A stretch of DNA of 58,121 nt, the filler included, from Sphacelaria rigidula (Eukaryota): assembly GCA_964200075.2 (NCBI GenBank). It is 5 parts of 5 records of this genome, joined end to end, with 100 filler letters (N's around TTAATTAATTAA, not from the genome) between each part and the next. Parts side by side here need not be neighbours in the genome. Positions count along the whole stretch, not along the records: positions 46,579 to 58,121 come from CAXNAA020004809.1; 4 more parts are not named here. The stretch is one strand, 5' to 3'. The notes beneath the pieces were generated by a model. It did no database searches. It was not told where the DNA came from and saw nothing but the letters and a program-made list of their open reading frames with translations. The position numbers and the translations under genes were made by a program. The first letter of the stretch is position 1. The number at the start of each line of letters is the position of its first letter. Positions 7,493 through 53,395 of this stretch are shown here, piece by piece.

Positions 7493-7563
7493 AGGGGTGC
7501 GTGCTCAATGGTCACACGACTGAGGCAAGAAACAAATAAGTACGCCCCCCCGCCCGCCCCCCT
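7493..7563 (+). mobile_element. LINE extreme 3' fragment ending in C-run
   Basis: Matches the 3' end at 52050-52108 (tgcgtg.tcaatggtca.acgact.aggcaag.aacaaat.agtacgcccc). Confidence 0.75.
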
Positions 7564-7778
7564 CCCCCCCGAAACCCAGCTCGAAAGTGTCACGAAACAC
7601 ATGGTCATGTAGCGCCTGATGTTTAGGCTCAGGCTGCATGAAGCGCCTCATATGGGCGACATTGGCGAGAACGAACCGAAGCGTGGGAATTCCCAGCTGC
7701 TCGATGTGCTCGGTTTTTTTCATTTCGATTTAAATGAAGATTTCGCCTCCCCAAACCAGGCACTTTTTGGAGAGGGGG
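7564..7778. mobile_element. MITE-like element with C-run/G-run termini
   Basis: Starts cccccccgaaa and ends gcactttttggagaggggg. A reverse copy lies at 11646-11809 and a terminal remnant at 1-24. Confidence 0.55.
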
Positions 7779-8082
7779 TCTCGAAGAAAGTGTCCACATC
7801 GTGGTCACTCTCCATTTTCCCCCACTCAATCAAGCCCATCAGCTTGTTATTGGTTTCTGCGTTAGTAAGGAACCAAATGTGTTTGTGTGCTCATTCGGCC
7901 GGATAAAGCGCCAACCTTGAAACATATTTTCTTCTTCAACTGCACGAGCAACTGTTTAACAACACTGTGCAGCCTCTGCGAGCTCTCTTGTCAGAGCTGG
8001 ATTCACGTGATGAATCGTTTGCCTGTCAAATTGAAAGTCGAACGTTGTGTGTTGTACACAAGCCACAGCCATACTTTTAACA

Positions 8083-8556
8083 GACTTCGGGTGGTGGACC
8101 TGGATCTGCCAGGAAGAAGAAAAATGTATTTCATGAGTCGGGTGGAAGAGGAAGCAGATGCACAGAACTGCCCCTGTGGCGAAGCAATCGACTATATAAC
8201 TCATATAGTGCCAGAATGTGAACTATACAACGAAGGACGGGACGTGTTACAGGAGGAAGTGCGCGACGTAAATCGAAGGTGGCATGACCTCGTTCGGTAC
8301 AGTAGACAGTAGCGAGATGATAACGGTCACTATACTACGAGATAGATACTGATCACAGATGGTGAATTAGGGAGGAGATATAATATGTGCAACATTTATG
8401 CATAATGCATGGAAGAAAAGCGATGAGCGCCCGAATATTGTAGGTGTATCTTTTCAGAGTAAACGCGGTGCTCCGGCCCGGCTTTGTAAGGATGCGCGGT
8501 CAATCGTCGAATATCTAAGGCGAGCAACCAATGGGTACACCCCCCCTTCCTCTCCC
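8083..8556 (+). mobile_element. 5'-truncated LINE 3' fragment (ORF2 C-terminal CCHC + 3' end)
   Basis: Encodes LRVVDLDLPGRRK...QNCPCGEAIDYITHIVPECELY. Colinear with 51238-51445 joined to 51861-52108. Ends in a C-run. Confidence 0.85.
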
Positions 8557-8689
8557 GCGCGCTTCAGGCTACGAGCCCGTGTTGGAGGCATTACTCAGTG
8601 TCTATGGGTCAGCACACTAAAATACACCAGATCCAAGCACCTGGATTGGATTATCCCAGTACCTTGACTACATCCCACTCCAATACTTA

Positions 8690-11545
8690 CACCGAAGAAG
8701 TGGAGATACTCCCGGAAGAAATCGAGAGAGACGGTAAGAAAGGGTGGAACAAAAAGTGGACGGGTGACGTACTGATTGTGTTCGTATTGGGAGTCCGTTC
8801 ATGACGAGAACAGACTTGAAATAAAAGGAAACGAAACGAAGTAAGACCATACTGTTTGGCAACGGGAAAAGTGAAGAGGAAGGGAGAACACTTCCGAGTC
8901 ACTCTACAACAGACAGCGAGCAAGGAGTGGGGAAGAGCAGAGACAAACAAGGTGTCGGCATGGGTTGTTAGGACAAGATGGAGAGTATTCGTAGACAATG
9001 TAACAACGGATGCAAGACGTATCCCTTGGGAAAACAGAGGAAAGGGGAAGCAGGAGCAAGTAAATGCCCGGAGGGGAAAGGGAAGGGGAAATAGCGGTCC
9101 TAAGCAAGCATGTCATGACCAAAAGGAAACGAGAAGGAAAATCAAAGGAGTAGAGTAGAAGTAAAAACAGCGGAGAAATAGCAATTGACGAAAAGAGAGT
9201 GGAAATAGGATGCAACTCCATGAAAAAGGAGGCGGAAATAGGATGCAAAGTTGAAGAGTGCGCATGGATAGGGAAAAGGCGGAAGCGGTAGAAAGAAAAG
9301 AAGCGGGGGGCGGCGGGGAGAACAAAAATTAGACGAGGAACATATCTATGTGACATCATAGAGGTGATCAGAAACGCAAAATTCGACGACGAGAGCATAT
9401 GGATCAGGGTATCAGGAGAGCGGGGAACAAAATATGTACTCGTAAGGAACATGTATATGCCCCAAGAATCGAAGAGTACTGTGAACGCTACACAGAGGAA
9501 GTTTGGAGAGATAGCAGCAGGGACACAGAAGCATAAAAGGCAAGGAAAAGTAATGTTGGTGGGATATATGAATACAAGGATTGGAGAAGCAAATCAACCG
9601 GACGGTATCATTGGGCAATAGGGGGAAACGAAGAATAAGAATGGGGTATAGGTGTTGAAGCCTCTCGAGAATAATGCGACGAACGCCGTGAACGACAGAG
9701 TACAAAAGTCAGATCCGTAATTGAGATGGACTAGAAAATACAAAGATAAGGGAGAAGGCTGCATTCTTGACCATTTAGTGGGGGGATCTGGAAATAGTAG
9801 GGGGATGGAAGTACATGTATGCACAGTGAACGTTGGAACTACAGGTCAGCGCCTAAAATGGACAGACAGCCGACAGACGAGAGCTAACAAAATAGGTGGG
9901 TTAGCAAGTTGTTCAAATGAAAAATAGATGAACCCGGACTCGAAGAAAGACAGCAAGAGCTCCGAAAAGGGATGCTTACAAATAAAAGTGATAGTTTCCG
10001 AGCTTTTGGAGAGCGTAGGTACAACAATGAATACCGAAATAGAGAGGGACCAGGCAGCAGCGAAGATTAAAGAAGGATGGCGGAAATTGGTCAAGATCAC
10101 AGCAAGTAACGTCACAAGGGAGGGAACTGTTCACATACGAACGGAGCAGTGAAATGGTGATGATGAAGAAGCATAAACGTCTATAAAAACAACAAGAAAG
10201 GTCCGCGGAAGTTATATCACTAGAGTTATCCTACGATCGCGGAGGGGGGTATTTGCACGAGAAAGGGGCTCATGAGTGTGTCAGACGACCCGCCAAACTC
10301 GTGGTGCGCTTGTATTTGGTTCAAAATGGTGTCGATGGGTTTGAATGGGCGTTAGTTATCTGTCACAAGCTCGTTCGAGCAACCTTTGGTGCTTTCAACG
10401 ACGATTCGACTTGAAAGTTCTCGCAAAAATTGGCCCAAAATACCCCCTCCCCCCTATTGTAGGATGACTCACGAGTGAAACTGCGGTAGGGTGGGGAGAG
10501 TTTGCCCAAGCCCGAAAGGAGGTTGAACAAGTGGTAGAGAGGAAACAGAAGTTGATATGGAAAAATTTAGGCAATGAAACAAAGTAACATTTCGATGGCG
10601 AGATGGAGCAATTATCGGTAGGGATAAGAGAGATGCTGGGGAACCAGCTAGAAGAGATAGAGAAGGGGATGACAAACTAAGATCACAGAACGGTAAAACG
10701 GCTTGTAGTCGAAAGGGGAAGACAGAAGTACTACCAGATACCTACCGAAGATTTGGGACACCAGCAATGAACAAGAGGTTCGACGCTGACTTCGACAACA
10801 AATGAAAGCGTGGGCATAGGCAAGTGTAGAGGTATCAAAACGGGAAAATGGTGGCTCAAAGGAACTTCAGAGAGAGTCCGTCCACAAGAAAAGGGTGAAG
10901 GATTGTGTAGCTATACTGAAGAAGAGAAAGGCAGCAGGGGCGGAAGAGATAATGAATGGATTCCTGAAGCACGGGGGAGAGGGAACGATTGCAGTGATGG
11001 TCATGCTGTACAATTGGATATGGGGAAGCGATGACACACCCAAGAGCTGGAGAGAAGGGGTAGTAGCAAACCGTTTCTAGGAAAGTTACAATGCTGACCC
11101 AGGGAATTATTAAGGGATAACGCTACCGAGCACCGTAGGGAGAAAAATCACGAAGATTCTGAATGATAGAGTGCCAACGATGCTAGAAAAGGAGGAAGAA
11201 ATCAATAAGGGGCAACCAGGTTTAAGACCAAACCGTAGTTGCATAGAACATGTGTGCACATGAGGTACGATTACTCAAGGTAGGAAAAACGCCGGACTAA
11301 CAGGGTAGTGTTCCCTTCTAGACGCATAAAAGATCTGTGCCACTGTATAGAGAAATTAACTGTGGGGAAAGATGTGGGAAACTACGAACAGAGGAAAGAT
11401 GTGGAGAATGGTAGAGAAGATTACATAACGTGCGAGAAGAGCTGTAATGCTAGACGAGGAAATATAGAAATATTTCACACCTCGGATAACGTAGTACCTA
11501 GCAATTTGTGTTGAGTTGCTTTCAAGTCAGACCCTAGCTATAACA
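8690..11545 (+). pseudogene. Decayed non-LTR retrotransposon (LINE): APE endonuclease + RT, cut by contig end
   Basis: APE-like ESIWIRV..NMYMP..VMLVGYMNTRIG at 9364-9621. RT N-terminal motifs LKKRKAAGAEEI, PKSWREG, DPGNY*GITLPS and QPGLRPNRSC at about 10900-11260. Strongly A/G-rich sense strand. The 5' boundary is approximate. Confidence 0.88.
10223..10470. mobile_element. MITE inserted in the LINE
   Basis: TIRs gagttatcctac..ggaggggggtattt / aaataccccctcc..gtaggatgactc, flanked by acta/acga. A related copy lies at about 12628-12850. Confidence 0.8.
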
Positions 11546-11645: not shown

Positions 11646-11809
11646 ATGGGAAAAGCCGAGCACAACGAGCAGCTGAGAATTCCCACGCTTGGGTTCGTTC
11701 TCGCCAATGTTGCCAATATGAGGCGCCTCATGCAGCCTGAACCCAAACATCAGGCGCTGTATGGTCATTTTTTGCATGACACTTTTGGGCTGTTTTTTTG
11801 GGGGGGGGG
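11646..11809 (-). mobile_element. Reverse copy of the 7564-7778 MITE (truncated by contig start)
   Basis: Reverse complement of about 7564-7723. Confidence 0.75.
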
Positions 11810-12627: not shown

Positions 12628-12850
12628 GAGTCCTGCTACGGAAGGGGGAGGTATTCTACTCCACAAAAAATGGTCTTATAGATGCGTCAGACGACCCAAC
12701 ACACTCGCGGTGCGCTTGTATTTGGGTAAAAGTGGTCTCCAGCAGGATGGATGGCCGTCATTTATCGGGAATAAGCGCGCTCGAACAACCGTTGCTTCTT
12801 TCCACGACAAGTGAAATAGTGTGCGTGGAAGAAAACCGCCCAAATCCCCC
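12628..12850. mobile_element. Second copy of the 10223-10470 MITE family
   Basis: Shares gtcagacgaccc...actcg.ggtgcgcttgtatttgg and a TIR-like start. The right end runs into poly-C. Confidence 0.65.
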
Positions 12851-13025
12851 CCCCCCCCCCCCCCCACACCGCCCAACCGCCCACAGAAGGAACAAAAGGA
12901 AAAAGGCCCCCACCCCCCCTCCACAACNNNNNNNNNNCACCTCCCCCTCCTCCCCCCCGCTCCTTCACCAAACAGCAAGGCACGGCACAACTTGTTCAGG
13001 TCCCCCCCCCCCCCAACTACCGCTA

Positions 13026-22499: not shown

Positions 22500-22572
22500 T
22501 GCTCCGTTTCGGAAGTGATGCGTGGTCAATGGTCAAACGAATGAGGCAGGCAACGAATGAATACAACCCTCC
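22500..22572 (+). mobile_element. Short LINE 3' fragment preceded by a C-run
   Basis: Matches about 52035-52100. Upstream C8TC4 at 22484-22496 and downstream ccctcc. Confidence 0.7.
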
Positions 22573-23190: not shown

Positions 23191-23290
23191 NNNNNNNNNN
23201 NNNNNNNNNNNNNNNNNNNNNNNNNNNNNNNNNNTTAATTAATTAANNNNNNNNNNNNNNNNNNNNNNNNNNNNNNNNNNNNNNNNNNNN
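23191..23290. other. Assembly linker
   Basis: N-run with TTAATTAATTAA. Confidence 0.98.
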
Positions 23291-34834: not shown

Positions 34835-34934
34835 NNNNNNNNNNNNNNNNNNNNNNNNNNNNNNNNNNNNNNNNNNNNTTAATTAATTAANNNNNNNNNN
34901 NNNNNNNNNNNNNNNNNNNNNNNNNNNNNNNNNN
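34835..34934. other. Assembly linker
   Basis: N-run with TTAATTAATTAA. Confidence 0.98.
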
Positions 34935-35147
34935 GGGGCGGCGGGGGGGGGCGGCGTTGTACTCATGATCATGCCTGCCATAGTCATTAGATCATTGACC
35001 TCGCAAGGGCGCAAGGTGAAGACCGTTTTGTTGGCGTGCTTGCTTGAGGGGAGCAGTATCGGTGCGCGACATGAACGCTCACAGCTTTTCCTGCTGTTAT
35101 TTTTGTCGGTTTGGTTTTCGAAACCTTGCAACTCTGTCGTCCGACAG

Positions 35148-38100
35148 GGGTGGAAACAACGACGGGTAATCCTAAGGAGGAGTTGCAGCGGAAGGCGGCG
35201 TTGGACAGGGAGAGAAGGGAAGCGAAGGAGCAGGCCGATGCCCGCGCTGAGGAGAGAGGTCACGTGAGAACATCATGAACTACATGAAGACATGGCAACG
35301 AGCATCACATTCGAATACTTGCGAGAGCTTTGTCAGAATTAAATTCTTTATGTAGTTCACTAGAGGTATCTCGAACTCGAGGTTCCCGATATATTCAACT
35401 GTAAATCACTGTGAAATATACCGGGTATCTCGAGTTTTAGATACCTCTACTAATGAGCTAGCTCTTCGTCCCGTTCCGGACCCCATTATACTGAGGCCAT
35501 CTGACTATGCAAATCATGTAATAATTTCCCAAAAGTGAAATCTCGTGTCTGTGCCCATTTGGAAACATGGGAGCATGATTTTCACACTGTCAGTTGGTAT
35601 CAGTATCATGAGGACGGGATGAAGACCTGACTACTACAGTAGAGCTTACGTATTTGTCGTGAAAATGGTTGATTACTTGATTTTAGAGTGAACGCCGATA
35701 TTCGGATTTTCATAGAGGCCGACAGTTCCGAGTGCTCTTCTTGATAGCTTGCCCAGAACGCGTTTTTGTCAACATCGGCGCCTCCCGATTTGAGATCTGA
35801 CAACGCACATCTTGTCTACCTAGAGCACCCGTCGTAACCCCCTTTCCCGAGGTTTCTCATATACCTGGGGTTGGAGTTAAGTATAGGGTTGGAGTCATTC
35901 AAAATCGTAAATTTCCGAGAACATGATGTCAACCATAATTACGGCAACTCGTGAGCACCCCTCGTCATACATGGGATATAAATGATCTGGGAGTGCTGGA
36001 CAGTGTGAAGTTCCTCCGGCCAGTGGTGCGACTACAGTACAGGCACTCTCGGGAGGTGGGATTGTGTGTTTCAAGTAAGCCCGCGAGGTATCTTCGACTG
36101 CCGACGAGTTAGTTGCTGGATAATCTTTATCACGCCGGCGTTTTCGTATCGTCAACCTCGAACCCGACCGCGGTTTATTCCGAAAAATCGAAATAAACAC
36201 TACCAAAAGCTCGAACTTGCCGACACACAGGAGGCGTTAACATTGGAACGGGATCTCCGGGGGGCTGCGGGTTTGGAGGAGGAGTTGAGGCGTCTGCAAG
36301 AGCTGGACCGCTGGAGGCGCCAAGGCCCTGGAGCCGCGGATGCTAACCTCGCCGCTCTGCGAGAGAGGGTGAGCTAGTGCAGGGACGCACCGATATGTGG
36401 CCTTGAGCTCGAAGCGGTTGAATGGGTCGAGTTTGGTGCCTTATCCGCCCGCCACTACTATCCATTTTGTTCTTGGCAAAACGGTGGGAAAAAAATTGAA
36501 AGACGTCTGGAGCAAAAATTGCGGCCGAGGAGGAGCAACCGAGATGATGTGGAGCGATCTATTCGCAAATGTGACAAAACAGTTTTTGATTATTTCCATG
36601 TACGTTTTTTTGTGTTTGTGTCCCGCAGGAGATGCGCCGACACAAGCTCGGCGACGCCCATGCAGATGCCCGGCTGCCCTTACAACAGAGAGCGCGGAAA
36701 CGTTCTGGAAGGGCGTCCACCGAAGCTAGGGACGGGGAGGGGGCAGGACGGCCCGTCACTTTGTCGGGACAAAAGGTGGGCTTGTTTTGATCGATTGGCA
36801 AACACGCTGCAGTGTGCTCGTAGGACTTCCCTGTCGTGCAGCAGGGTGTTTTCGTCGTGATAAACATTTGCCCTGAACGTGTTCTCTTCCTATTATGCAG
36901 GAGCGATTGTGCAGAAGTCACGTTGACTTGAGCCATTCTTGTTCTGTACTTGACACTTTTTGACTCGTAACATTTCGGACGTGACGATTTATACCTCCTC
37001 ATGTCGCTCCACATCACGATGCTTCCTACTCGTGCTTACCCCGAACACGACAAAGGTGGACGACACAAAGTGGCGCCAATGGCCCGGATGGTGGCCGACA
37101 CCCCAGCCCCAACCCGCCCGCAGCCCCGCCACCGCAACTGCTGCTGCCGCGGCCGCCGCCGCGAAGGCGACAGCATCGCACCCCTCACCTCCCCGCACCG
37201 CCGTAACAGGGCGCGAACGCGTGCGTCTTATCGAACAAACGCGTCGTGGACTGTTGGACTCCGCTTTGCGCGCCGAAGACCAAGGGCACGGCCGCGCTCG
37301 CGCCGATGCCTCTGTACCCGCCGTCCCCGCCGTCCCCGCTGCCGCTGCTGCCGCTGCTGCCGCTGCTGCCGCTGCTGCCGCTGCTACTACTCCTGCTGCG
37401 GACAACGCAGATGTTGGGCTTCAAGGTGGGGAGTTGGGGAAAGGGCATCGAGAAGGCGCAGGGGCTGGTGATGTGACAGTCGCGGGGGTCAATCGCGGGC
37501 ATTTCACCACCCCGGCTGCTTTTGCCGGCAGGGCGGGGGCTTCGGCCGCGAGTGAGTCGACGGCCGCGGCGGCTGCTGCTACGTCCGGAGGATTCAGGAG
37601 ACCACTATCCTCGACCAATGCTGCAGTGTCAAGTGCGCGTCCTCCTGGCCAAGCTGCGCATGTCGGTGCTTCGGATCGTGCTGCTGATGATCACCTGGGG
37701 GGAACGGGACGAATTAAAAGCGACGCCGGCCCCGGCGGCCGTGGTGGAAATGACCGAGGCGAACGTACGTACTTCGAAGATGAGCAGGGTGCTGACCTAA
37801 GTCGGGATTCATTGACACCATTACGACCATCAACGCCACCGTCACCTGAAAGTTTACTTGCGGCTGCGGCGACCGAGGAGGCGGCGGCGGGGGCGGCGGC
37901 GGCGGCAGGAGCCACAGCTCCATCGCGCCCTCAAACTCCTCACATTGCTGCCGAGACACCTTCGAGGGCGACGGCTTCTACTACCTCGCGTGGCACCGAG
38001 GACGGTGGTGGTCGCGGTGACGATCGAGCGACGACTGGACAACAGGATGGTCCGGAGGGGCTGCGGCAGAGGGGAGGAGGGAAACGGCCACGTGAACGTA

Positions 38101-41100
38101 TAGATGATCGAGGCAACGCGAGGAGGGGGCAGCTGGCGAGACGTTCTGAAGTAGAGGTCCGCGTGCCGCACACGCAGCAGGTGCGCCTTGGCTGTTTTGA
38201 GGGGAGTTCCCTACGGAGAATCGGGTCCGGGGTGGACGTGTACGTTCGGTGGCGTGGTTAGTAGATGTGCTGAGGGTGCATGGCTAACGTGTCGTCAAGA
38301 ATGGCGATCTCGCGATACAGGAGGGGTAGTTGCCCGCTTTATTCTATTTTTCGATTCGGAAAGGCACGTGCTGACGTCTAGTTTGCCATTGATATTTTTC
38401 TCGCCACGTGAGAATACATTACTCTGTCGTAACTTAACCGGTGCCGCCTGAATCTTGAGGTTATGCACTTCTTGCCTGCTCTACATTCATGTACAGCTAC
38501 GGCATTGCAGTGAACCACAAATGAGTACGCCTCCCCCCCCCCCCTTCCTCCCGTCTCGCCTCCAGCTCCCCAAGGAGGCTGATGTTGGGTGGGATGCGGA
38601 CTCCGAAAGATCGCCACAGTCCGCCAACGTGCCTGTCGGTAGGACCGGCGGCCATCCCGATCAATACCCACCGGATAGTGCCCTGCAAGATCCTCGACGG
38701 ACGGGGATGAACCAGCGAGTTCCAGATGGAGTGGTATCGAGCGCTGGCGCGTGGCGAGGCGGTGATGAACACGGTGATGTGGGTAGCGTGGGACGGACAG
38801 TGTCACCGCACACGGTGGCACCAGTTGAGCGGAAATCCACCACCGCTGTTGCTGCTGTAGCCGGTGATGCGTCGGCAGCCGGCTCTGCGAGGATGATGCA
38901 AGACGAAGAGGGGGGGAGGCATGAACGGAATCCTAGCGTGACGTCAGCATTAAGGAAGATATCGGCGACTAAACCGATGATGGTTGACGCGGCCACTTGG
39001 ACGGAACCAACAACGATGGGAGAATCCGGAGAACGCGCTCAGCGGGAGGGGACGGCAGCGCCGGCGCCGGTCGAGGCTGTGGTCGCGGAGGGTCCACAAG
39101 CCGAGGCACCAATGAAGGCAGGGGCTACCTTTGAAACCGAACCTTCTTTATCGTCTGTGTCGGTCGCCGCTAGTGGGGTGCCCTCCGAGGCTGCGGAATC
39201 ACGACCACAAGCTGACGACGCCGGGTTGGAGAAAAAAACGCACGAGGTTAACTGGCAGGGTTCGCAAGAAACGCCCAACGTGAGCAATGCCGCCGCCGCC
39301 CCGTACGCAGGTGCTACAGTTACAGGCCATGCCGGCAGCGACCTCGCTGAGATGAGCCCGCACTCGGGGGGCGCGGCTGTATTGCTCCCCGACAGCACGC
39401 ACGAGCCTCCTCAAAAATCAAACACCGAGGCCGAACAAAAGGTAGGCGGAGAGCACAGCGTGCACGATGATGACGCCGATTACCCCACAATGGAAGAGCT
39501 AGGCTTCCGACAGAGCAGCGACAGCGATTATACACGAATTTTCGTCCAGCAGGGGGAGCGAGCGCGGGGAAAATCCCGCGATGAAGCCGGAACAACAGAG
39601 TCCGCGGCGGTCTCCACTTTGCCGCTACAGGCAACCCGCGTGGAGGGGGACTCTTTTTCCCGACCGCCGATGTCCGATTTGCGAAGTGGTGATGGTCACC
39701 CCGCCGAGCGGCCTGATCGATATAGTTTGGCAGCGGGAACGGGGATGGATCGTGGTGGTGACAGCGGTGGCGCAGGAGGAGACTGGGGGACGGGGGAACA
39801 CGTAGAAGATGCCAGCGTTTCGGTTGTCACAAGTAGCTCGTCAACTTTGCCGCCGCTAGACCAAGAGCTCGCGGAGTTGCTGCAAAGGTGCGGTGTTGCA
39901 AAATCACATTCTAGGGTGATATTCACGGTTTCGGTCTCGATTTCCTTTGCTCTCAAGCTCCCCCCTCAACTGGTTAACAGGGGATGTGAGCAGTGCTGAA
40001 GCCGTCGGTTTTTCTTATCCCAACCATTTTTACGTCTCCTGTTGCCCGCTTAACTTCGGGGATTTTGTTTTCGACGTGTTGGTGGCAACCTGGGCTTCAG
40101 CCCGGGACCTTCCGCTCATGAAGCGTGCAGAGTTATCTCGTGGTTTCGCCAATGTGAAAGGGTGGTTCCTCGACGGACACTTGTGAGAAAATTACCCTCC
40201 TATCATGGGATATCCACACTTGCGTACGTGTCAAGTTTTCTTTTTTTGTTCCATCTTCCTTCTAAATTTAATATCGGCTAGCATATCGCTACTCTCTCGC
40301 GCGCCCCTGCCCCCCCTCCCCACTCTCCGCCCTATATCCAGGACGCGCGGTTAACTACCTAGTGACTTGAGAACGGCAAAACATGAGGTACCCTCCCCTC
40401 CTCCCTCCTCCTTCCCCGTCCTGCCCGCCCGCACCGACCCCATCTGATATTCACAGACATCGGCGCCTCGACAAGGAGGCGGAGAAGCTTACTCGCCGTG
40501 CCGAGGCGGACGCGTTCGAATGGGGCTTCAACACTTCGGCGCCATCCTCCCCAGACGGGCATGGCAACAGCTTCTCATCGCCACGACGGGACCACGCTGT
40601 TGGCGACCACCGACTTTCCCCCGCTTCTCCGGCGGCGGCGGCGGCAGCGTTCGGGGCGAGGGTAACAGCGACGGCGGCAAGCGCGTGTGGAGAACACCGT
40701 GGTAGAAGATATTCGAGGGCTCGAGGTGTGATGGATGCGTTACCGGAAGAGCTCGAATTGCGGGACAGGATGGGCGTGGGGAGTAGTAGCGGTGGAGACG
40801 GAGGGGGGTCGTCAAGTGCCACGCCGACGTCAGTGTCATCTCCGTCTGTTGCGGGACGTGATCGCACGGGTGAGGGGGAACACAGTAGCGGCGGCGGCGG
40901 CGGGGGCGGGTGGGGCGGCCGTGGTGAGTGTTTCTTGTGTTGTAAGCGCTTGTGAAGAGATCACGGTGTTGCAGAGACGGTAGCTTCGCGACAAAACGGT
41001 CGCTCTTTTTCCAAGCTTGCACCGCACCTAACACTGCGTATTTTCGACCTTGGCCGTTGGAAGCCAACCCAGTTTTGTCGTCCCGTCGATGGAAACAGCG

Positions 41101-44100
41101 CAGGGACAGTCACCGCGGGAAGAGGAGACTCCTTCTCGAGAGCGTTTCGCCGTATTCAGGCGACGTATAGCGGGTTTCTGTATCTTGAGATGATGGTGCT
41201 GTAGAAGCAGTATCGGCATGGTAAAGATGCTGTAGATTGCACCTAACTTGTTCGCCGTATAAGCACGAGGACACGTATTTTGCGGCCTTCGTCACATGTG
41301 AACGCAAAACTCCGCTGAACTTTATTCTCTAAAGCAATATCTATGTGACTTCTGCCGATGTTCTGATCTGAATCGCACGGGAACAGTATCATGGGACGAT
41401 GAAATAGCAAAGGCATTCTCGAGGCAAGGGCCGGCGGTGCCCGGGTGGCGAGATAGGTGGCGGCGACCTGATGGCGACGCGATTGCCGGGTCGCGCGCAG
41501 CGCTTGGAGTATGGGAAGACGCGGCATCATTGCCGGATGAGGAGGCGAAGCGCGGGACTGGAGATATGCAGCCCCAGGGAAATATGGATACTGCCCAGGA
41601 GGTACGGCCAAAGGCCCGATCCTAAGCATCCTTGTTCAAAGCATAAGGCTGGGTTGACGTGTACCTTTTCCGGTCTCACGGTTGAACTGAACGATCGACT
41701 GTCCTTAGGCGGTGTCGGGGTGGGACATTCACAAGCTGAAGAATTCGGTCGATCACGAACTACTGATCCACAGCAGATTTAATCTTATGGGTATCGTTTC
41801 GGAATCCGTGCGCTAAACCGACCGTCCTGCTGAATTTATTTTGGAAGGTTGGCGCCCTCCGTGACCACAAATAGGGTGCTCTGAATCCTAGTTGTGGTAA
41901 AGTACAGTTGAACCTCGTTTCAGCCCAGAGGAAGACAGCTCGCGATGATCTGCTTCCTCTTTTTGGTGGCCGTCGACCAAATCAGCGAGGGCAGGGATTT
42001 TGGCGATGGAAAGCCCTGACCAGCAGCTTTTGAAGAAGCGTACCAGTAGGACAGAGGGTAACATGAAGTTGATGATGCTACGTGTGAAATTACCAGATTC
42101 GAATCATGGGTTGAATGTCGTAGTTCAGCTTAGTGTGCAGCCATTTTAAGTCAACGCAGATCACACTACACACCAACGCGAACCTAACGTAACCGGACTT
42201 GACCCTATCAAATGAAAACGAAAACCGCCAAATAGGTAACGGAGTGGGCGAGGCGCATACAAGCCTCCATAGAGAGCATGAACAAGCTGGTGGACGGGTT
42301 CCAGATGGCTACCGCCGTTGCCGGCGCTGGAGCCAACAGTACCCACGGCAGCAGTGGCAGCGGCTCAACCCCTTTCAGGTCAGCCGAGTCATCCTCTTCC
42401 CCAACCGACACCGCGGCAACTGGCACTTCTCGTCTTGGCGATGCCGGTTTCAAGGGCTCATCCACTTCGCGTAAATCATCCCATGGGGGCGGCATTGGAG
42501 GAGGAGTGGACATAACACCCTCCTTCGCCCCCGGCGCCCAAAACTTCGCCACGGCACAGCTGGGCTTCCGTCGCGGCTTAGAAGGACTCTTGGCGGACAG
42601 GTCGCGCGGGAAGGGGGCCGCGGCGGCGGTGGCAGCGGTAGGGACGGCCGCTTCGGCGCAATCATCATCAGCGAGCGAGGGAGCGGGGGCGCATCATAAT
42701 TCTCCCCTCGTTGACGCATCTCGCCGCCAATATACCGGGTCAGCGGCGAGCAGTACGACAAAGGATGAACCAAGAACAATGGAAGTGGCTGCATCGCCTT
42801 TGCTGGATGATTCAATTGATAAAACAAGCGGACGTGCCTGCGGAGCTGCCAACTTGTCTGTCTCGACCCCTGGAGGTATCAGTGACGTTGAATCTTCCAG
42901 CGGTGTCGTCAGCCGGCGTGGGGGTAGTGATGAAAGTGACCATGGTCGTGGTAGTCTTGAGGGTGGGGTCGGATTCACGGCTATTGTCGACAGGATGGAA
43001 TCCTTCAACGCAGCCGACGCTAGCGCCGACACGCTGGAGGAGCTGGGAGAACGGCTTCTGGGGTCACGCTTACCCGGCAAAACCGGCCTGCGACGTCGGC
43101 CGTTTCACCGGTCCACAATCGCCGAGGACGACAGCGATGGCGATCGTGCGAGAAGGTTATCGTCATCCTTGTCTATGTCGGTCAGTGAGTCCCCCGCCGC
43201 CTCCGCTGAGGCGCTTAACCCCGCATCCAACCCATCGGTTTCGACCTCTTATGAAAACGAAAGTACCGGTTGGGAAGAAACGAAGGGTGGAGAATATGAG
43301 GTAAGGTCTAGCGGACGGTTTTCGGCGACGGCAGGGGCAGCCGGTGGCGGCAGTGACGGCGATCAGAAGAGGGATGCGGGAATAGCTCGGGGTGTATCCG
43401 GTGTTCGTGGATGGAGGGAGGGATCTGTGACGTCGTGGAGCAGCAATTCGTTCGGGCCAGACCTGGAGGCAGAGATCGCGAGCTTGGAGGCGCTTGCGGC
43501 GTCTTTACAGCGACGGAATATGCGCTCGGACACTGGGGTAAATAAGTGGCGCCTGTTGCAAGTAGGCTATTGTTTTTTGCGTTCGTGGATTGTGAGTTGG
43601 AAAGTTCAGTAAAACTTGATAACTTTGTGAGATTACTTTCGAGTCGAATCGTTATTTCGTTCATGACTAAATATCTGTTCAGTCGCTCTCCGCGTGTATG
43701 TGTTCCCGCTGTTCGGTACCGACAATCTATTTGACGGACCTACAGGTATGTAGAATCCAGTGGCGGAAGCTCAAAAAGCGTCGTGCTCCTACTGCGGCGT
43801 TACCTCACTCCCCCCTATTCCCACAAACCCTGTTCCCTGACCCTGTGACGGCCAATCCAACCTGCGCAATTCCATGCAAACGTTAGCCAACATCACCCGT
43901 CCAGCAGCAACAAGGCTTGGAGGATCACCATCGCGCCATTCGAACAGCGTCTTTCGCGGCATCCTCGTTATCCTCGCTGGCCGATGATCTCGGACAACGC
44001 TTAGGCCTAGGAGGTCAAGCCTTCGCTGACGGCGATGCGACAGCAGCGGTGACGGCGACGGCGAGAACGGATGCTCACGATTCTGCCATCGCAATAGCAA

Positions 44101-46478
44101 CAGCAACAGCAACAGCAGTAGCAGCATCAGGAGTGAGGCAGGGAGCAGTAACGACAGCAAAGTCTACCACATCCGCCGGGCTGCAAAGTGTCATGGATTC
44201 TGTTACGCAGCGGCCACGACCCGCCGGGGACGAACCAATTCCATCCGGCGGGGCGCGAGCCGCCGTCGATGGGCAGCAGACGCCGCCACATGACTCGTCC
44301 ACTTCATCTATGGACTCCTACGAAAACATTATTCATGAACTGCATAAGCTGAAAGCAACAGTCGCTGACCTTGCGCCGGGACCGCCTTCCCGACTGTCGT
44401 CTACCCCAATACCGTCGGTATTTCCTCCATCCACAACCGCACCAGGCGCGACAAGCACGACGGATCCCGCGTTGCCAATGGGAAGAACGCCTGCCGTTAG
44501 TCCTGGCCTATCGGCAGCTGCAGCTGGGGTGGGGCCGGCTGCAGGGGTCCGAAATAGGGCGTTCGCAACCAGTGTAGAGCAAGGAACCCGCGTCGAAACT
44601 GCCGAGCAAGTTACGATTCCCAGCGGCGACGGTGGATCGGAATGGTGGCGGCGGCGGGATAATGACGTGGGAAGCTCGATTGAACGGATGGAGTCCGAAA
44701 GGCGGGAGGCACATGCGGCGCGGGAACCGCTTTCGTCCTCGCGTGGGCTGCGCTGGTCGGATTCGGCGGGAGGGACTGATGAGAACGAGCGGACTTTTGA
44801 GAGCGGCAGAGAGGAAGAAAAGGGCATTGCTGATGAGGGACACCGGTTGCGGGTGCAAGGAGAGGGTGGTCTGGTTGGTCGAGCAAGATTGACATCGCCA
44901 GTTGCCTCTGCGGCTGAGGCTGGCGACGTAAATGACGAGTACCGAGGCAGCGACTTGGACGTCACGTACGCTGACCAAAGTCACGATCGGTTTCGTGCAC
45001 CCAGTCTTACCCACTCCGTGATTGAAGTTGTTACCGGTGGTTCATCATCCGCCGAAATCTCACCGCTGCTGGCAACACCCCGAGAAGCAGGCGGTGTCGG
45101 CGCTGGTACCGGATTCCATGGAGGCCACGGCAGAGCTAGCAGTGCGCCTAGAGTTAGCGGGGGACTCGACGCGAGCAATTGGGAAGATGAAGAGGCCGAA
45201 TCGGCTAACGATGAGGCATTCGTTACTTCTCCCTTCTCCGTCAACGCTGTCCGGTCGCCCGTCGACGGTAATGTCCAAGTTGGTTCCGACAGCGCTGCAG
45301 GCGGTACCGGTGGCGCCGGGGGGGAAAACTCTCACGGACGCGGTGCTGTTCGTGCGGGTGGCCGCGGAGACGACGGAACGGGGCGTGTGGGTCGCGCGAG
45401 GAGGACTAGGGTCTGGGGTGTCATCCCTCGTCGCCGCGATCGCGGGGCGACCGACAGCGCCTTGGTGGTGAACACCGATAGTGCGTCCTCGGAGAGTTTC
45501 GATGACAGTAACAGCGGCAGTAGCGTGGGGTACCTCGGAAGTCGTGTTCGCGAGAGGAATATATTTGGAGTCAGAGAAGGCGACAGCGGCGGGGACAGTG
45601 AGATTGACACTCGTGCGGCTTCACAACCTGCCGCCGCCGCCACCGCCGCCGCCGCCGTCGCTGCTGCTACTGCTGACTCTGCGGCCGTAGAGGAAGCGAC
45701 GATTGACCGAGTACGCAACAGTGACGATCGAGGCGAACAAGGGGCTAGCGGGGAGCGCCTGGCTGACCATGCAGTGCGGAGCGAACACAGCGACACCATG
45801 AGTAGGAAATACCGAGATCGTGGGAGAGCTTCCGGAGGCAGCGATGATGGTAGCGTGAGAGGCGGAAGCGGGAATCCAAACCTGTCCATCGACGCTGACC
45901 TCGCGCAGAAAGAGTCTTCCTACACCAGCAGTAAGCAACAGCTCCCTCTCGAGGAGCTCTCGCCACTCGAGGCCCCGGGCTGGGGATCCCTGGCGGAATA
46001 TATCGAAGGGGATTCGAAAACCTCCAGCGATGGGTCGGGGCTTGACTGCAAAGACAACGATATTCTTGGCCAGCAGTCGCAGCACGAGCAGGCATCTGTG
46101 GAGGCTGCCAGCTCAGACGGTGTTTGCGAACGTAAGGGGAGTGACGAAAGTGGCGGGGGCAGATGGGACGGCGCGCAGGTACAAGAACCCGATACTTTTG
46201 ACGCAGGTAGGCAAGAAGTTGCGCTTGGTGATGATGAGGAAGGACGAGGACGTGGCGCCGCTGTTCAGTTCGAGGACGGTTGCAGCTCCCGAAAGGAAGG
46301 ACGCGATAGTGCCGCAGGTGTGGAGACAGCGACACAGGGTGCGGGGGATGCCAGAGAGGAGCAGAGGTCGACGGTGAATGAGTCGGGTCAGCGTGATGCA
46401 AAAAAAAACGAGGACCGCGGAAGGCGGGGGGGCGGGAGCGGGGGGGGGGAGGGGGGGGGGGGGGGGGGGGGGGCGGGG
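35148..46478 (+). CDS. Partial multi-exon host gene, >2,400 aa, Ala/Gly/Ser/Glu/Arg-rich, predicted disordered with short coiled-coil segments; function unknown
   Basis: Phase-compatible AG/GT exons with no stops: 35148-35263, 36231-36368, 36629-36775, 37056-38180, 38566-39887, 40457-40923, 41387-41601, 42236-43537 (alternative end 43561) and 43905->46478. Start and stop lie outside the contig. Confidence 0.8.
35362..35448. mobile_element. Tiny hairpin MITE in intron, ACT TSD
   Basis: act|agaggtatctcgaactcgag ... ctcgagttttagatacctct|act. Confidence 0.75.
37056..38180 (+). CDS. Large exon of the contig-4 gene (poly-Ala rich)
   Basis: aag|GTG acceptor and CAG|gtgcgc donor; 375 codons within ORF 36960-38261. 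A (GCCGCTGCT)n repeat at about 37335-37385 encodes poly-Ala. Confidence 0.8.
38566..39887 (+). CDS. Large exon of the contig-4 gene
   Basis: Pyrimidine tract plus ccag acceptor, AG|gtgcgg donor (phase 2). Joins 40457 to give LAELLQRHRRLDKEAEKL. Confidence 0.82.
42236..43537 (+). CDS. Large exon of the contig-4 gene (Ser/Gly rich)
   Basis: tag|GTA acceptor in frame with ORF 42278-43612. Ends with the coil-like DLEAEIASLEALAASLQRR. Confidence 0.8.
43905..46478 (+). CDS. Largest exon of the contig-4 gene, truncated by contig end
   Basis: >850 open codons (ORF 43917-46526) after a ccag acceptor. Confidence 0.85.
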
Positions 46479-46578
46479 NNNNNNNNNNNNNNNNNNNNNN
46501 NNNNNNNNNNNNNNNNNNNNNNTTAATTAATTAANNNNNNNNNNNNNNNNNNNNNNNNNNNNNNNNNNNNNNNNNNNN
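46479..46578. other. Assembly linker
   Basis: N-run with TTAATTAATTAA. Confidence 0.98.
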
Positions 46579-48946: not shown

Positions 48947-49470
48947 AACACCGTTTTCGTGAGATTGAAAGTAAAGCATTGATCGAGAGTGGGTTTCATC
49001 AGTCGCTTCAACGTGACCAACTTTACATTCTGTGCGTGTTTTCTTTCCCTGTATCACTGCCGTGTGCTTACAGCTACATACCAATATCCTACTCTGGGGT
49101 GTCAAGCACACGCGGCCATTTGGCTACCCACCAAAATGCCCCCGGAGGGATGCGCGGCCCTTCCGAGGCAAAAACCAGCCTCCGGAGGCGTTCAATCCCT
49201 CTGGAGGAAACCATAAAATCTCCTCTGGAAAGCCGCGCACCCCTCCGGAGGCGTTTAATTCCTCTGGAGGCTCAAAGAGTTGACCGACTCGGAGGAAGTT
49301 TGGGGGTAGCCAGATGGCCGCGTGTGAGGGCTTCAGTGGCAAGCTACTACAGGAAGCGTATCGGGTCTTGTGGAGGGGCATTTTGGGACTGAAACTGGTC
49401 ATTCATCAATTGACCGCTTCTCACTTTCAATCGTATCCTCTCCTACTCTCAATCACACAAAAACGTTGTT
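48947..49470 (-). mobile_element. MITE family B, copy 3 (interrupted by the CAC element)
   Basis: Reverse complement of 18848-19148 once 49107-49328 is removed. Confidence 0.82.
49107..49326. mobile_element. CAC-ended element, TSD AG
   Basis: TIR cacacgcggccatttggctaccc / gggtagccagatggccgcgtgtg. The empty site is visible in the family-B copy at about 18983-18992. Confidence 0.9.
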
Positions 49471-49717
49471 TCAACCGGTTGTACCAGTCAACTTGTACCA
49501 GTTAACTGGGACTGGTCAGTTAAACTGGCAGCCAGTTTCCAACTCAACTGATTAATGTATGGGATTTCCCCCCGGCCATCGATATACTGTGAACCGAATA
49601 TTTCGGCTGTATCGCCAGGCCCTCTAATGGAAACAACCTACTCTTATTAATTTTCATAATCTATCACTATTTCCGATCGCGCGACTATACGAGCTGCTGG
49701 ATCAGCCGAGAAACGGG

Positions 49718-50096
49718 CACACGCGATCACTTGTCTACCCCCAAAATTCCTCCAGGGCGGTCGACTTTTCGAGCCTCCAGAGGAAATAAACGCTTCCGGA
49801 GGAGTGCGCGGCACTTTAGAGGGGTACACGGCCTTCCAGAGGAGTACTTCTTGTTTCGCCCAGAGTGACTAAACGCCTCCGGAGGAGACTTGCTTTGCCT
49901 CCGAAGGGCCCCGCATCTCTCCGGGGGCATTTTTCTACCCCCGAATTCCTCCGGAGGGGTGCGCGGCCGTCTAGGGCGGCGGTGTTTGGTTACCTCCAGA
50001 GGGATTTGAAGGCCTCCGGAGGAGGCTTGCCTTGCCTCTGGAGGGCCGCACATCCCTCCGGCGGCATTTTGGGGGGTAGCCAAATGGCCGCGTGTG
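49718..50096. mobile_element. CAC-ended element, TSD GG
   Basis: Same TIRs and cc(t/g)c(c/t)ggagg subterminal motifs. Confidence 0.85.
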
Positions 50097-50714
50097 GGGC
50101 GCTGTATGTCGTTAGATCATCACGGGGAATGATAACGCTGTTATCAGGGCCGGTAACATGAGCGCGGACGTCATAACTCAAGCGTGTATGATTGTGGTCG
50201 AATTCAGTAAACGGTATAGCACGGATGAACCGCAAGATCGCGGGCCAGCAAGGAGAAAGAAAAATGTGCACAAGTTGACAAGGGGCATTTCGTGAGCTTT
50301 TTCTGTGGATGTGCCTGGAATTTCGGTCCAGGGGTTATTGAGATGTGACATGCCACATCTCCGGCGTGTTGACGCCGAATTCTACAAACAACAGCTCGGA
50401 TGAACCGTAAGGTCCACGCGATCACCGGTCATAGGAGAAAAACAGAAACAAAAGGTACACGTGAAGGTGAAGGACATTTCGTGAATTTCAACAGGCAATT
50501 CTATAAAATGATGTTAGTATGCTAAAATGAGGTTCAAGCCCAAAACAGTGTTTTCTCCACACTTACAGCGATAGTTCCAAATGATCTTTTTGCGAGCCTA
50601 ATGCTCCTCGATCGCGCAGATACTTCTTCAGCGCATTTTACCGGCTCTGTGAGCTTACAGCGCTGACTGAAACCGGCGTTTTCCCTGATATCGCCCCAAC
50701 CCCCCCTCAAGAGA

Positions 50715-50835
50715 ACGCTGGAATGTTGAAGTTGTCTATATCAGGAGTAGGAACGGTGCTCCGTCTAGAAAGGGATGCGTGGTCGATGGTCAAACGACTA
50801 AGGCAAGCAGCAAATGAGTACGCCGCTCCTCCCCT
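50715..50835 (+). mobile_element. Short LINE 3' insertion with 14-bp TSD CCCCCCTCAAGAGA
   Basis: TSD at 50701-50714 and 50836-50849. The body matches about 51993-52102. Confidence 0.85.
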
Positions 50836-50845
50836 CCCCCCTCAA

Positions 50846-52108
50846 GAGAGCAGAGTTGGGGACGTACGCACTTAAAACAGAGAAGGAGGGAATCGAGGTC
50901 GCAATATAGCATAAGGAACATGCAGAGAAAGAGATTGTCAGCTATAGTTAATAGGGCTGTATGGAAGAAAAGCATGAAAGGTAAGGCTGGAATAAGGTGG
51001 GAGAAAGAAGTCGAGAGTATGGAAGAAGGGAGAAACCAAGACGAAATACTGTCCAGAGGTGAAAGCGCGGGGGAAAAGACAAAAGTAAGGGACATGATGG
51101 AAATAAGGGGGAAAGGAGCGCTCAGACGCAAAGTAGACGAGGAAGAGCACCTGAAGATATACGGGGGGTTGAAAGAGGGGATCGGGATGGAAACATATCA
51201 GCATGACCCAATGGACGCGGCGAAAAATTGAAACTGCGACTTCGGGTGGGGGACCTGGACCTGCCAGAAAGAAGAAAGAGATATACCAGTAGTCGTGTGG
51301 AGGAGGAAGCAGATGCACAGAACTGCCCCTGTGGCAAAGTAATAGAGAGCAGAAGTCATAAAGTGGCAGAGTGTGAACTATACAAGGAGGAACGGGACGT
51401 GCTGAAGGGGGAAATGCGGGATGCGAAAGAAGGTGGTATGGAATCTGTGCAGATTATGTGTTGAACATGGATATCATACGTCGATTCTCAGGCATGTAGT
51501 CAACCAGCCTGGTAGGAGCCAGTGCGGTTCAGTACAAGGTACCGACAGGAACGGTCCGGGAACCAGTACTGTAGCCAGTGTTCAGTCGAGCCAGAACGGC
51601 TCCGCGGCTCTATATTGTAAGCTCTATAGTTGGGATTTAGGGCTGAGATTCAGAGAGAGAAGGTTCAAATAGAGCTGTACACCAGCGGGTGACGTCTGAA
51701 TGAATAATGAAAAGCACGGCGATGCAGCACCCCATTCGGGTACGTCGTCTGCTCAACCCATCAAGATCTCTAGTGACAATTGCCTTGCTCCGCTATAAAA
51801 CGGTGCACTGCGAGGAAGCGCGCCACGGCCACACCAAACACCTCACAAGTGCACAGAATCGTTTGATGCATTAGACAGTAGCGAGAAAACGATGGCTATA
51901 CTAGGAGACAGATGGTGGCCACAGACGGCGAAACAGAGCCGGGATCAAATATGTACAAGGTTTTTGTGTAATGTATGGGAGAAACGTGATGAGCGCCGGA
52001 ACGTTGAAGGTGGCTCTATTAGGAGTTGGAGCGGTGCTCCGTCTCGAAAGGGATGCGTGGTCAATGGTCAAACGACTAAGGCAAGCAACAAATGAGTACG
52101 CCCCCCCC
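50846..52108 (+). mobile_element. 5'-truncated LINE (ORF2 C-terminus + 3' end + C8), interrupted by solo LTR
   Basis: Encodes RAELG.., KLRLRVGDLDLPERRK..NCPCGKVIESRSHKVAECELY and AILGDRWWPQ. Ends gagtacg-C8. Confidence 0.88.
51446..51855. mobile_element. Solo LTR (410 bp)
   Basis: TGTGCA...TGCACA termini and a 5-bp TSD GAATC at 51441-51445 and 51856-51860. The LINE copy at about 8280-8310 shows the empty site. Confidence 0.9.
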
Positions 52109-52612
52109 AAAAAAAAAAGTCAGGGAAAATGACGGTTTCGGTCAGCGCTATAAGCTCACAGAGTGGGCAAAATGCGCTGAAGAAGTATCCACGCGATCGA
52201 GGGGTATTAAGCCGAGAAAACTCATCGGGCGCCATCGCTGTAGGTGTGGGGAAAGCACTGTTTTGGGCTTGATCCTCATTTTAGCATACAGCCTCATTTT
52301 ATAGAATTGTCTGCTTTTCCCTGTTGGCGTCCCTCCGATCCCTGCTCAGGGGCCGAGATTTGACATGCCATGTTTCCGGTGTTTTGACGTCAGATTCAAT
52401 GAACGATATCTCGGATAAATCGCAAGGTCCACGCGAGCACCACGGCGATCTGCGAGATAAAAACAAAAAACAGAATGCACTCAAGAAGATGACGGAAATT
52501 TCGTGAACGTTTCCTGTTGCTGTCACTCTGATCTTGGGTAACAGGGGGCAGAAGATATGTATGTGTGTGTATGTTGTTATCCCATCTATTCTGAACGCCA
52601 GTCTACACCGTT

Positions 52613-53395
52613 CACACGCGGCCATTTGGCTACCCCCAAATTTCCTTCTGGGCGATCAACGTTTCGAGCCTCCAGAGGAATTAAACGCCTCCGGACGGGT
52701 GCGCGGCCCTCCAGAGGGATATTGTTTGGTTTAGTCCAGAGGGATTAAACGTCTCCGGAGGCTTGTTTTTGCCTCTGGAGGGCCCCGCATGCCTCAGGAG
52801 GCATTTTGCTACCCCCAAATTCTTCCGGAGGGGTGCGCGGCCCTTCAGGGCGGTAGTGTTTGGCATCTTCCAGAGGGATTGAAGACCGAACGACGGATTC
52901 TCAAAAATGGGGTTGAACAAAATAATTAGGATCAACCCGAAAGCAGTGCTTTCTCGGACCTAAAGTAATGACAAATGACTTTCATATGGATGAACTCATC
53001 CCTCGCGACCTCCCTAAAACTATTTCGGGGGATTTCTAGCCTTCCGTTCCCGCAAAGGATATGTATGAAAGCATACTTTTGCCTCGATTTCGGAGTGAAA
53101 AAGGGATGCCTTTTGGCCAAAACATCTTGCTTTCGCACATACTCTTTGGGGGAACGGAAGGTTAGCGATCCCCCGAAATATTTGTAGGGAGTTCGGGAGG
53201 GACGCGGTCGTTCATATGATAGTCATTCGTCATGACGTTTAGGTCAGGGGAAGCACTGCTTTTGAGTTGAACCTCATGTTTTTGTTCAACTCCATTTTCG
53301 AGAATCCACTGTTCACTTCCGGAGTTTTTTTTGCCTGTGGAGGACCACGCATCCCTCCGAAGGCGTTTTGGCAGGTGGCCAAATGGCTGCTTGTG
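52613..53395. mobile_element. CAC-ended element, TSD TT, with nested foldback MITE
   Basis: tt|cacacgcggccatttggctacc ... gtggccaaatggctgcttgtg|tt. Confidence 0.85.
52888..53314. mobile_element. Foldback MITE (long imperfect palindrome), flanks ACC/ACT
   Basis: The arms pair over ~180 bp. Related to 14543-14704 and 54167-54614. Confidence 0.85.

Follow-up and report, generated by a model that had tools for sequence, protein, structure and literature searches.

Oligo(C)-tailed copies of a LINE family in the Sphacelaria rigidula genome and their association with C-runs

How a long interspersed nuclear element (LINE) that ends in C instead of A selects and primes its target is the question raised by a stretch of 58,121 nt from the genome assembly GCA_964200075.2 of the brown alga Sphacelaria rigidula, the whole of which we call the window. 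An earlier note on this DNA had listed six LINE 3' ends followed by C-rich runs, and had proposed that the family inserts into C-runs through a G/C mirror image of target-primed reverse transcription (TPRT), a property for which it knew of no described family. Our analysis establishes a LINE family that has a variable oligo(C) tail and lacks poly(A). The window is a concatenation of five pieces of about 11.5 kb with spacers (N44-TTAATTAATTAA-N44) between them, and the repeat families D1 and I5-I9 of our repeat search of the window are artefacts of the N-runs in these spacers. As the window is not contiguous, the LINE copies come from four separate pieces.

All six 3' ends listed earlier are present, at 7544 (caaataagtacg), 8539 (ccaatgggtaca), 22565/6 (cgaatgaataca), 38529, 50822 and 52100. 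The copies share the terminus ..AAATGAGTACG; the last three have the exact 12-mer caaatgagtacg (three occurrences in the window vs 0.007 expected by chance), and the others are close variants. The repeat search unites five of the six in one family (D4), and at 38529 the LINE homology spans just 12-14 nt. The minus strand holds a seventh copy, at 34958-35003. Tail statistics were taken over 12 copies, namely these seven and five from outside contigs (L001-L005), using the first 15 nt past each terminus. C-rich sequence, and not poly(A), comes next in all 12, as the earlier note had stated for its six 3' ends: 137 of the 180 bases are C (background 0.244; binomial P = 6e-48), each copy has 6-14 C in its 15 nt, and a C-run of at least 6 nt is present in 11, the exception being the copy ending at 22565 with a longest run of 3. 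No A stands directly past the terminus in any of the 12, and one copy (52100) has C8 followed by A10. Tail length ranges from C3 to more than C20 across copies and contigs, while the last ~50 nt of the element are nearly invariant in 11 copies. A possible 7-nt remnant of the terminus on the minus strand (17951-17975, ..ccataagtaCCCCCCCCaaaaaac.., with C8 and then A6) is too short to separate from chance.

The outside copies were found by scans with a trimmed C-terminal alignment (A2), which yielded four metagenome loci and two loci in a collection of prokaryote genomes, where contigs of algal origin had presumably been binned or assembled together with bacterial ones; a scan of viral contigs with the family gave no relatives. 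One locus (L006), a 330-nt fragment without the 3' end, was excluded. The five loci that reach the 3' end all finish in gtacg or ctacg plus a C-run (Table 1), and their 3' flanks beyond the tail are unrelated, varied sequence. Logan contigs of four runs (X1, X3, X4 and X5) were also placed on window positions 51857-52300 at 80% likeness, giving 99,328, 76,647, 41,220 and 12,902 contigs in the four runs. Their alignments stop at 52105-52108, where the overhang consensus reads C15-20 and then variable sequence, at an agreement of 0.38-0.45 (462+436+1885 records in X1, 437+487+1667 in X3, 388+381+969 in X4 and 286 in X5). The summed contig depth is highest over 52037-52096; this depth is not a copy number and so was not used as a count.

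The target is best read at copy 5, which is flanked by an exact 14-bp target-site duplication (TSD), CCCCCCTCAAGAGA, that begins with C6 (50701-50714 and 50836-50849). The earlier note had reported this TSD and its C6 adjoining the tail, with a right-hand coordinate that was off by one base. The LINE homology of copy 6 starts at 50846, so that the final 4 bases of the TSD are the first 4 of copy 6, and because these 4 nt of the older copy are duplicated upstream, the TSD is a true staggered-cut duplication. The insertion of copy 5 is thus later than that of copy 6 and started inside a pre-existing C7. The CCGCTCCTCCCCT that follows the copy 5 terminus was brought by the element, because it is absent from the 5' flank. 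TSDs are readable in two cases only, the other being a possible, imperfect 8-bp TSD of copy 3 at 22500 (CCCTCC(C/A)C).

Copies 5 and 6 occupy the centre of a repeated inverted-repeat element, and its LINE-free paralogues show the state of the target before insertion. Their centre consensus (..GATATCACCCCCC(G/T)CAAAAAAGGG.., from 10 and 47 records at the contig loose ends 52120 and 52123) reads ..CCCCCC(G/T)CAAAAAA.., with C6 at the spot of LINE insertion; the earlier note had advised a search of orthologous empty sites for such C-runs. Both the C6 and the A-run therefore pre-exist, and the A10 that follows copy 6 is most likely part of the target and not of the LINE. The arm family of the inverted-repeat element is covered by many run contigs and looks like a foldback element or a miniature inverted-repeat transposable element. 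The piece that holds copies 5 and 6 is rich in related inverted and direct repeats, also at 49100-50100 and 52600-53300 (I11-I24, D7, D12-D14).

A C-run of at least 6 nt lies within 25 nt upstream at four of the eight 5' junctions (background 0.0091; P = 5e-7), and the C-runs that had been reported before the copies at 22500 (C8TC4) and 50846 are both present. The contig ends before 52034/52035 have an overhang consensus that is all C (281+518, 465, 413 and 127 records). Insertion into C-runs, as claimed earlier, thus holds in part: the TSD with C6 and the poly-C consensus of the upstream flank speak for it, and the other four junctions speak against its being a rule.

The contigs further indicate that the 3' end of the element often stands in tandem. 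They join 52105-52108 back to 52032-52039, i.e., they go back 70-77 nt (for example, 56 contigs of X1 join 52108 to 52035), and the letters between the joined units vary (TCGCC, GCCC, TCC, A). The sequence tgctccg.. begins at 52034/52035 and likewise opens the 22500 copy, so that this copy has the 5' boundary of the abundant contig class. A ~72-nt terminal unit that is flanked by C-runs and is often tandem is common. Head-to-tail order is also seen among longer copies of the window, where the tail of copy 5 leads into copy 6 and that of copy 2 directly adjoins a 2.9-kb copy (8561..11479). An insertion of ~230 nt interrupts this long copy at about 10230-10455, and the copy continues into the spacer at 11546. 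It is 5'-truncated, because L001 and L005 have ~650 nt in common upstream of its start. Copy 6 is itself split by a ~410-bp insertion, between ..ggtatggaatc and gtttgatgcattagac, that is found neither in copy 2 nor in L001.

As predicted from sequence, the element is a single-open reading frame (ORF) LINE of ~1330 aa with an apurinic/apyrimidinic-type endonuclease (APE), a reverse transcriptase (RT) and a CCHC motif. The earlier note had assigned a LINE ORF2 C-terminal CCHC to the longer copies, and the motif CPCGKVIESRSHKVAEC is indeed found in copy 6 (at about 51320-51370); copy 2 has a CCHC as well. With the C-terminal CCHC peptide of the window (P0002) as query, 48 longer proteins were obtained, three of which carry the source name Sphacelaria rigidula. 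One of these named proteins, P0045 (1328 aa), has PF03372 (APE) at 142-383 and PF00078 (RT) at 710-959, and L001:961-4989 is one uninterrupted frame of 1343 aa that covers P0045 aa 1-1328; P0045, P0052 and L001 all have an intact APE domain. P0045, P0052 and the window ORF end alike (..APSRKG.VVNGQ.TKASNK). The stop codon is TGA within ..AAA TGA GTACG, which leaves a 3' untranslated region (UTR) of 5 nt plus the tail. The best PDB matches of the family RT are human L1 ORF2p (E = 1e-25) and R2 proteins, a result that shows an RT of LINE type and nothing finer. Pfam, run on 109 window ORFs, gave no LINE RT, only Copia and Gypsy RT; a degraded LINE RT at 8781-11473 that it missed was detected by tblastn with P0045. 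Element length is at least 5.15 kb in L005 and at least 5.0 kb in L001, both measured to the contig end within the 5'UTR. Position 717 of L001 was tried as a 5' end and rejected, as L005 shares the upstream ~650 nt and the boundary is internal; the APE-RT ORF of L001 begins 244 nt past it, and a TSD search from the boundary at ~717 to the 3' flank gave none. Two gene models touch the family: P0007 reads across a LINE array (3' end, tail and truncated copy), and P0010 joins the LINE C-terminus to an N-terminus that is lipase-like (PF01764). Both models are annotation artefacts caused by the family.

Residues 560-1328 of P0045 match proteins of Ectocarpus sp. CCAP 1310/34 (P0054, 92% over 62%; P0053, 58% over 99%; P0055, 47%), and the matching proteins end in ..APSSRGRVVNGLTAK, like those of the Sphacelaria family. 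Among the LINE groups of Ectocarpus, RTE-X is the most abundant, with 16,418 copies (PMC12477816, Genome Biol 2025;26:320). The supplementary table MOESM3 of that paper describes RTEX-1_Ec32 (5867 bp) by 'single EN-RT ORF; (C)n 3'', EN being endonuclease, and by a 'C-rich' TSD, and RTEX-2_Ec32 (5582 bp) by '(C)n termini/TSD'. The same source has two non-autonomous families, RTEX-N1_Ec32 (607 bp, 'can be present in tandem', '60 bp 3' end 83% RTEX-1/RTEX-2') and the derivative RTEX-N2_Ec32 (188 bp), and gives (CAA)n tails for RTE-1/2_Ec32 (PMC12477816). The claim that no such family had been described accordingly fails: the C-tail trait is real, and as these table entries show, it is already catalogued for related RTE-X families of Ectocarpus. 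The main-text passages of PMC12477816 on RTE-X, tails and target sites hold no discussion of the C tail or of a mechanism. Matching anatomy and homology to Ectocarpus lead us to infer that the Sphacelaria LINE is of the same kind as RTEX-1/2_Ec32. Like these, as far as the table entries describe them, it appears to have a single EN-RT ORF with the APE upstream of the RT, a (C)n 3' terminus, a length above 5 kb, and a conserved ~60-bp 3' end common to short tandem copies, and its TSD, starting with C6, matches their C-rich one. Unlike RTEX-N1/N2_Ec32 as listed there, which have bodies of 607 and 188 bp with unknown heads, the dominant short product in Sphacelaria is the ~72-nt unit flanked by C-runs. 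Other poly-C or C-tailed non-LTR (long terminal repeat) elements were not found in the literature searched, which included brown-alga preprints; bioRxiv supplements, possibly with notes on transposable elements, lay outside this search.

Mammalian L1 has a poly(A) tail and a nick in a T-rich bottom strand. For the Sphacelaria copies, our assessment is that they are probably 5'-truncated members of a very abundant brown-algal LINE of the RTE-X kind with an oligo(C) tail, which would start reverse transcription from a nick in a G-run by pairing of C tail and G-run. In a homopolymer tract of C/G, the strand with the G-run would be nicked by the APE endonuclease; the 3' end of the G-run thus freed would pair with the RNA at its C-rich 3' end and prime reverse transcription, in a geometry that mirrors, with A replaced by C, the T-rich primer/poly(A) pairing of L1. 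The first base of the TSD is that of the tail, and therefore the bottom-strand primer ends in G's that are able to pair with a C-rich RNA. The element RNA is probably non-polyadenylated or a read-through transcript. Each insertion would leave a new C-run, so that old tails could become targets; such re-targeting may have given rise to the tandem order of 3' end, C-run and next copy in the window, in P0007 and in the contigs, and may add to the long poly(C/G) tracts of the genome. For the mirror image of TPRT proposed in the earlier note, the geometry and the association with C-run targets thus fit, and the mechanism itself is plausible on this sequence evidence. The preference of the APE for G-runs, and possibly for G-quadruplexes, that the earlier note had drawn from it is a conjecture.

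A number of points weigh against this reading. At the 5' junctions of the copies at 7494, 8076, 38516 and 35003(-) no C-run lies within 25 nt upstream. Where there is one, part of the signal comes from self-targeting of older tails (two of the four C-runs are such tails), and one-step template jumping would give the same pattern. The TSD of copy 6 is ambiguous, as it could be AA, or C7TCAA minus one base. The paralogue consensus suggests that copy 6 entered 4 nt past the C-run, within the A-run, in which case the C8 may consist of tail alone and the priming is unclear. The TCAA at this 5' junction was also considered as untemplated filler, a candidate that we rejected since the paralogue consensus assigns the TC and the A's to the target. 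The last 90-100 nt show no sign of a conserved RNA structure (z = -0.32 vs shuffles for L001; 0 of 11 hairpin pairs covary). No full-length copy with both junctions was recovered, as L001 and L005 end inside the 5'UTR. The contig evidence was taken at 80% likeness, its consensus agreement is 0.38-0.46, and the runs may include the source sample of the window. Finally, the RTE-X assignment is one by Ectocarpus protein homology and by the library notes in the table, and not by RT phylogeny or alignment to the library consensus.

The rival that survives best, which we nevertheless consider unlikely, is that the RT makes the C-runs itself by slippage or non-templated addition, so that the arrays would be template jumps within single events and the junction C-runs mere by-products. 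The wide variation of the tails from C3 to more than C20, the heterogeneous letters at array junctions and the four junctions without a C-run are all in line with it, and the discrete 5' end of the ~72-nt class at 52035 would fit a point at which the RT stops or jumps. But the TSD of copy 5 starts in the pre-existing C7 and duplicates host as well as older-copy sequence, which marks a separate, later event with staggered nicks, and the LINE-free paralogues already have their C6. In addition, likeness between copies 5 and 6 is only 88% over their common 3' end (repeat search, D10), and the two therefore do not stem from one event.

It is very unlikely that no sequence-specific nick is involved and that LINE cDNA is captured at breaks in unusually structured G/C homopolymer tracts. 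The association with C/G runs would by itself suit such capture, as would the missing TSD of L001 from ~717 to the 3' flank, though that boundary proved internal; against it stand the exact 14-bp TSD, which is typical of two staggered nicks, the intact APE domain in P0045, P0052 and L001, and the huge abundance of the family. A satellite merely derived from the LINE 3' end, whose short C-run units were amplified by unequal crossing-over or replication slippage, is hardly more credible. Its tandem units of ~72-74 nt would account for the many joints that go back 70-77 nt, but not for joint offsets and spacer letters that vary among contigs, nor for dispersed single units with distinct flanks (22500-22566 and 34958-35003); in Ectocarpus, moreover, the curators' library entries class the equivalents as non-autonomous retroposons (PMC12477816). 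The idea that the C-run is internal 3'UTR, with a poly(A) or microsatellite as the real tail beyond it, which the C8 and A10 of copy 6 and the tiny possible copy at 17959(-) with C8A6 might suggest, is refuted by these data, short of contrary evidence from RNA, as there is no A-run after the C-run in 11 of the 12 copies, the overhang consensus past the C-run is variable sequence (a check that the earlier note had called for), and the A-run of copy 6 exists in LINE-free target paralogues. Each of these rivals is less likely than pairing of tail and target, mainly because of the dated, exact TSD of copy 5 and the pre-existing C6 in the paralogues.

Compared with mammalian L1, the Sphacelaria LINE has in common a TPRT of APE type, a homopolymer tail that merges with a TSD starting in the same base, frequent 5' truncation and a C-terminal CCHC. 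It differs in that its tail is C and not poly(A), with none of the 12 copies having A past the terminus, and in having almost no 3'UTR. Unlike L1 with its separate ORF1, it was read as a single ORF, a reading that covers the APE-RT ORF and not the ~700-900 nt upstream of it in L001 and L005. The specific conservation of the last ~70 nt suggests a stringent recognition of the 3' end, and not of the tail alone, unlike in L1. In LINEs with non-A tails, such as UnaL2, R1Bm and RTE elements, the element's own 3' end is recognised and the repeats of the tail pair with the target. Because non-polyadenylated RNA and tail-specific RNA recognition are usual in RTE-type and other 'stringent' LINEs, a non-polyadenylated RNA would be no mark of a new system. 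RTE elements, reportedly described by Malik and Eickbush in 1998, are said to have very short 3'UTRs that end in short repeats. The Sphacelaria LINE is like RTE-clade LINEs in its single EN-RT ORF, minimal 3'UTR and a non-A repeat tail able to pair with the target, and unlike them in that its tail is homopolymeric and its ORF has a CCHC knuckle and a conserved C-terminal extension. LINEs that target microsatellites or other repeats (Kibi/Koshi of the Tx1 group, Dong, Waldo and Mino) have reportedly been described by Kojima and Fujiwara. As in these, the repeat of the tail is that of the target, and elements are stacked in arrays within it; in contrast to strictly target-specific LINEs, the target here is a mononucleotide run and appears to be preferred, at four of the eight junctions, and not strict.

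A stronger version of the favoured reading would make the family a true homopolymer-(C/G) targeting system, with a G-run-preferring APE, C-tail priming, self-built arrays, a role as a main source of poly(C/G) and a ~72-nt miniature retroposon. We regard this whole as possible and put it forward tentatively, with the odds somewhat against it. In it, the ~72-nt unit, which comprises the last 20 codons and the terminus, would be a minimal module for recognition by the RT that acts as a miniature retroposon.

Table 1. LINE copies, tails, duplications and neighbouring features of the window, with the tails of the outside loci
Feature	Positions	Strand	Description	Evidence
Copy 1	7494..7570	+	~51-nt 3' end (to 7544) and 26-nt tail C7GC3GC6TC7	
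Copy 2	8076..8560	+	~464-nt 3' end with CCHC (to 8539) and tail CCCCCCCTTCCTCTCCCGCGCG	blastn, tblastn
Long 5'-truncated copy	8561..11479	+	Part of 5'UTR and ORF aa 1-837	tblastn with P0045, blastn
Copy 3	22500..22566	+	~66-nt 'mini' copy starting tgctccg; C8TC4GAA upstream, ACCCTCC downstream	
Extra copy	34935..35003	-	~46-nt 3' end (35003 to 34958) and tail ACGCCGC9GCCGCCCC, running into spacer	
Copy 4	38516..38550	+	12-14 nt of terminus and tail CCTC12TTCCTCCC	
Inverted-repeat element, left arm	50517..50690	+		Repeat search I15, I24
Left TSD	50701..50714	+	CCCCCCTCAAGAGA, 14 bp; last 4 nt GAGA are the first 4 nt of copy 6	
Copy 5	50715..50822	+	108-nt 5'-truncated 3' end, terminus caaatgagtacg	blastn to L001 4899-5007, 89%; tblastn P0045 aa 1298-1328
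Copy 5 tail	50823..50835	+	13-nt C-rich CCGCTCCTCCCCT	
Right TSD	50836..50849	+	14 bp; C6 adjoins copy 5 tail	
Copy 6, first segment	50846..51445	+	ORF2 aa ~1070-1243 including CCHC; frameshifts, stops	blastn to L001 4149-4757, 83%; tblastn
Insertion splitting copy 6	51446..51856	+	~410 bp, unrelated	Gap in blastn/tblastn alignments
Copy 6, last segment	51857..52100	+	ORF2 C-terminus ..GCVVNGQTTKASNK; TGA stop 52093-52095; terminus GTACG	
Copy 6 tail	52101..52108	+	C8; C15-20 at the same point in other copies (contigs)	
A-run after copy 6	52109..52118	+	A10; most likely target (centre of inverted-repeat element), not LINE	
Inverted-repeat element, right arm	52120..52290	+	Covered by many contigs	Repeat search I15, I24
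Spacers, four identical	11546-11645, 23191-23290, 34835-34934, 46479-46578		Steps of 11,644-11,645 nt	
Outside tails			L001 C10; L002 C8; L003 C11GC5; L004 CCTC7TCCTCCC; L005 C13	

Other repeats of the window also border on C-runs. A second retroposon-like family of ~230 nt, with copies at 10230-10455 and 12640-12865 that are 74% alike, ends in C-runs (..ggcccaaaataCCCCCTCCCCCC and ..ccgcccaaatC20); its 3' end is unlike that of the LINE, and the long LINE copy harbours one of its copies. More than one family here thus retroposes with a C tail. A repeat that we call 'X' (7571-7723 and 11646-11809, inverted, 84% alike) starts directly past a C-run in both copies; this run is the tail of the LINE copy ending at 7544 in one case, and a genomic C10 with A7 behind it in the other. 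Read on the opposite strand, X begins with ATG and an open frame (MKKTEHIEQLGIPTLRF..). The first X copy is followed by the LINE 3' part at 8076-8539, so that the two might have been retrotransposed together as a single chimeric unit. Long C/G homopolymer runs are unusually frequent in the window, with ten of at least 10 nt vs five such A/T runs; the longest are C27 at 23316, G23 at 46451, C21 at 46631 and C20 at 12846, and most of the longest are not preceded by the LINE terminus. Fragments of Copia-type RT (PF07727, E = 3e-31) and of Gypsy-type RT/RNase H (PF00078, PF17917) lie within 1-953 and 4801-5838, and the repeats at 2065-2284 and 7120-7367 (89-93% alike) may be LTRs or flanks of a Gypsy element. 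The region 36954-46526 is GC-rich (~60%), with open frames of 879, 515, 458 and 435 aa that have no Pfam match; these may either belong to host genes of low complexity or be spurious in DNA so rich in GC.

LINEs with an oligo(C) tail are rare and appear, within the literature searched, in annotation notes only. The remaining interest of the family lies in its mechanism and in the abundant ~72-nt units. For annotation, these units should be masked as RTE-X-derived retroposons and not as satellites or genes; several predicted 'proteins' of public sets (e.g., P0007) are read-throughs of such arrays. If true, TPRT by C tail and G-run would be a clean natural test of how far the pairing of tail and primer sets the integration site of a LINE, and it could explain why long C/G homopolymer tracts and tandem 3'-end arrays are many in this brown-algal genome.

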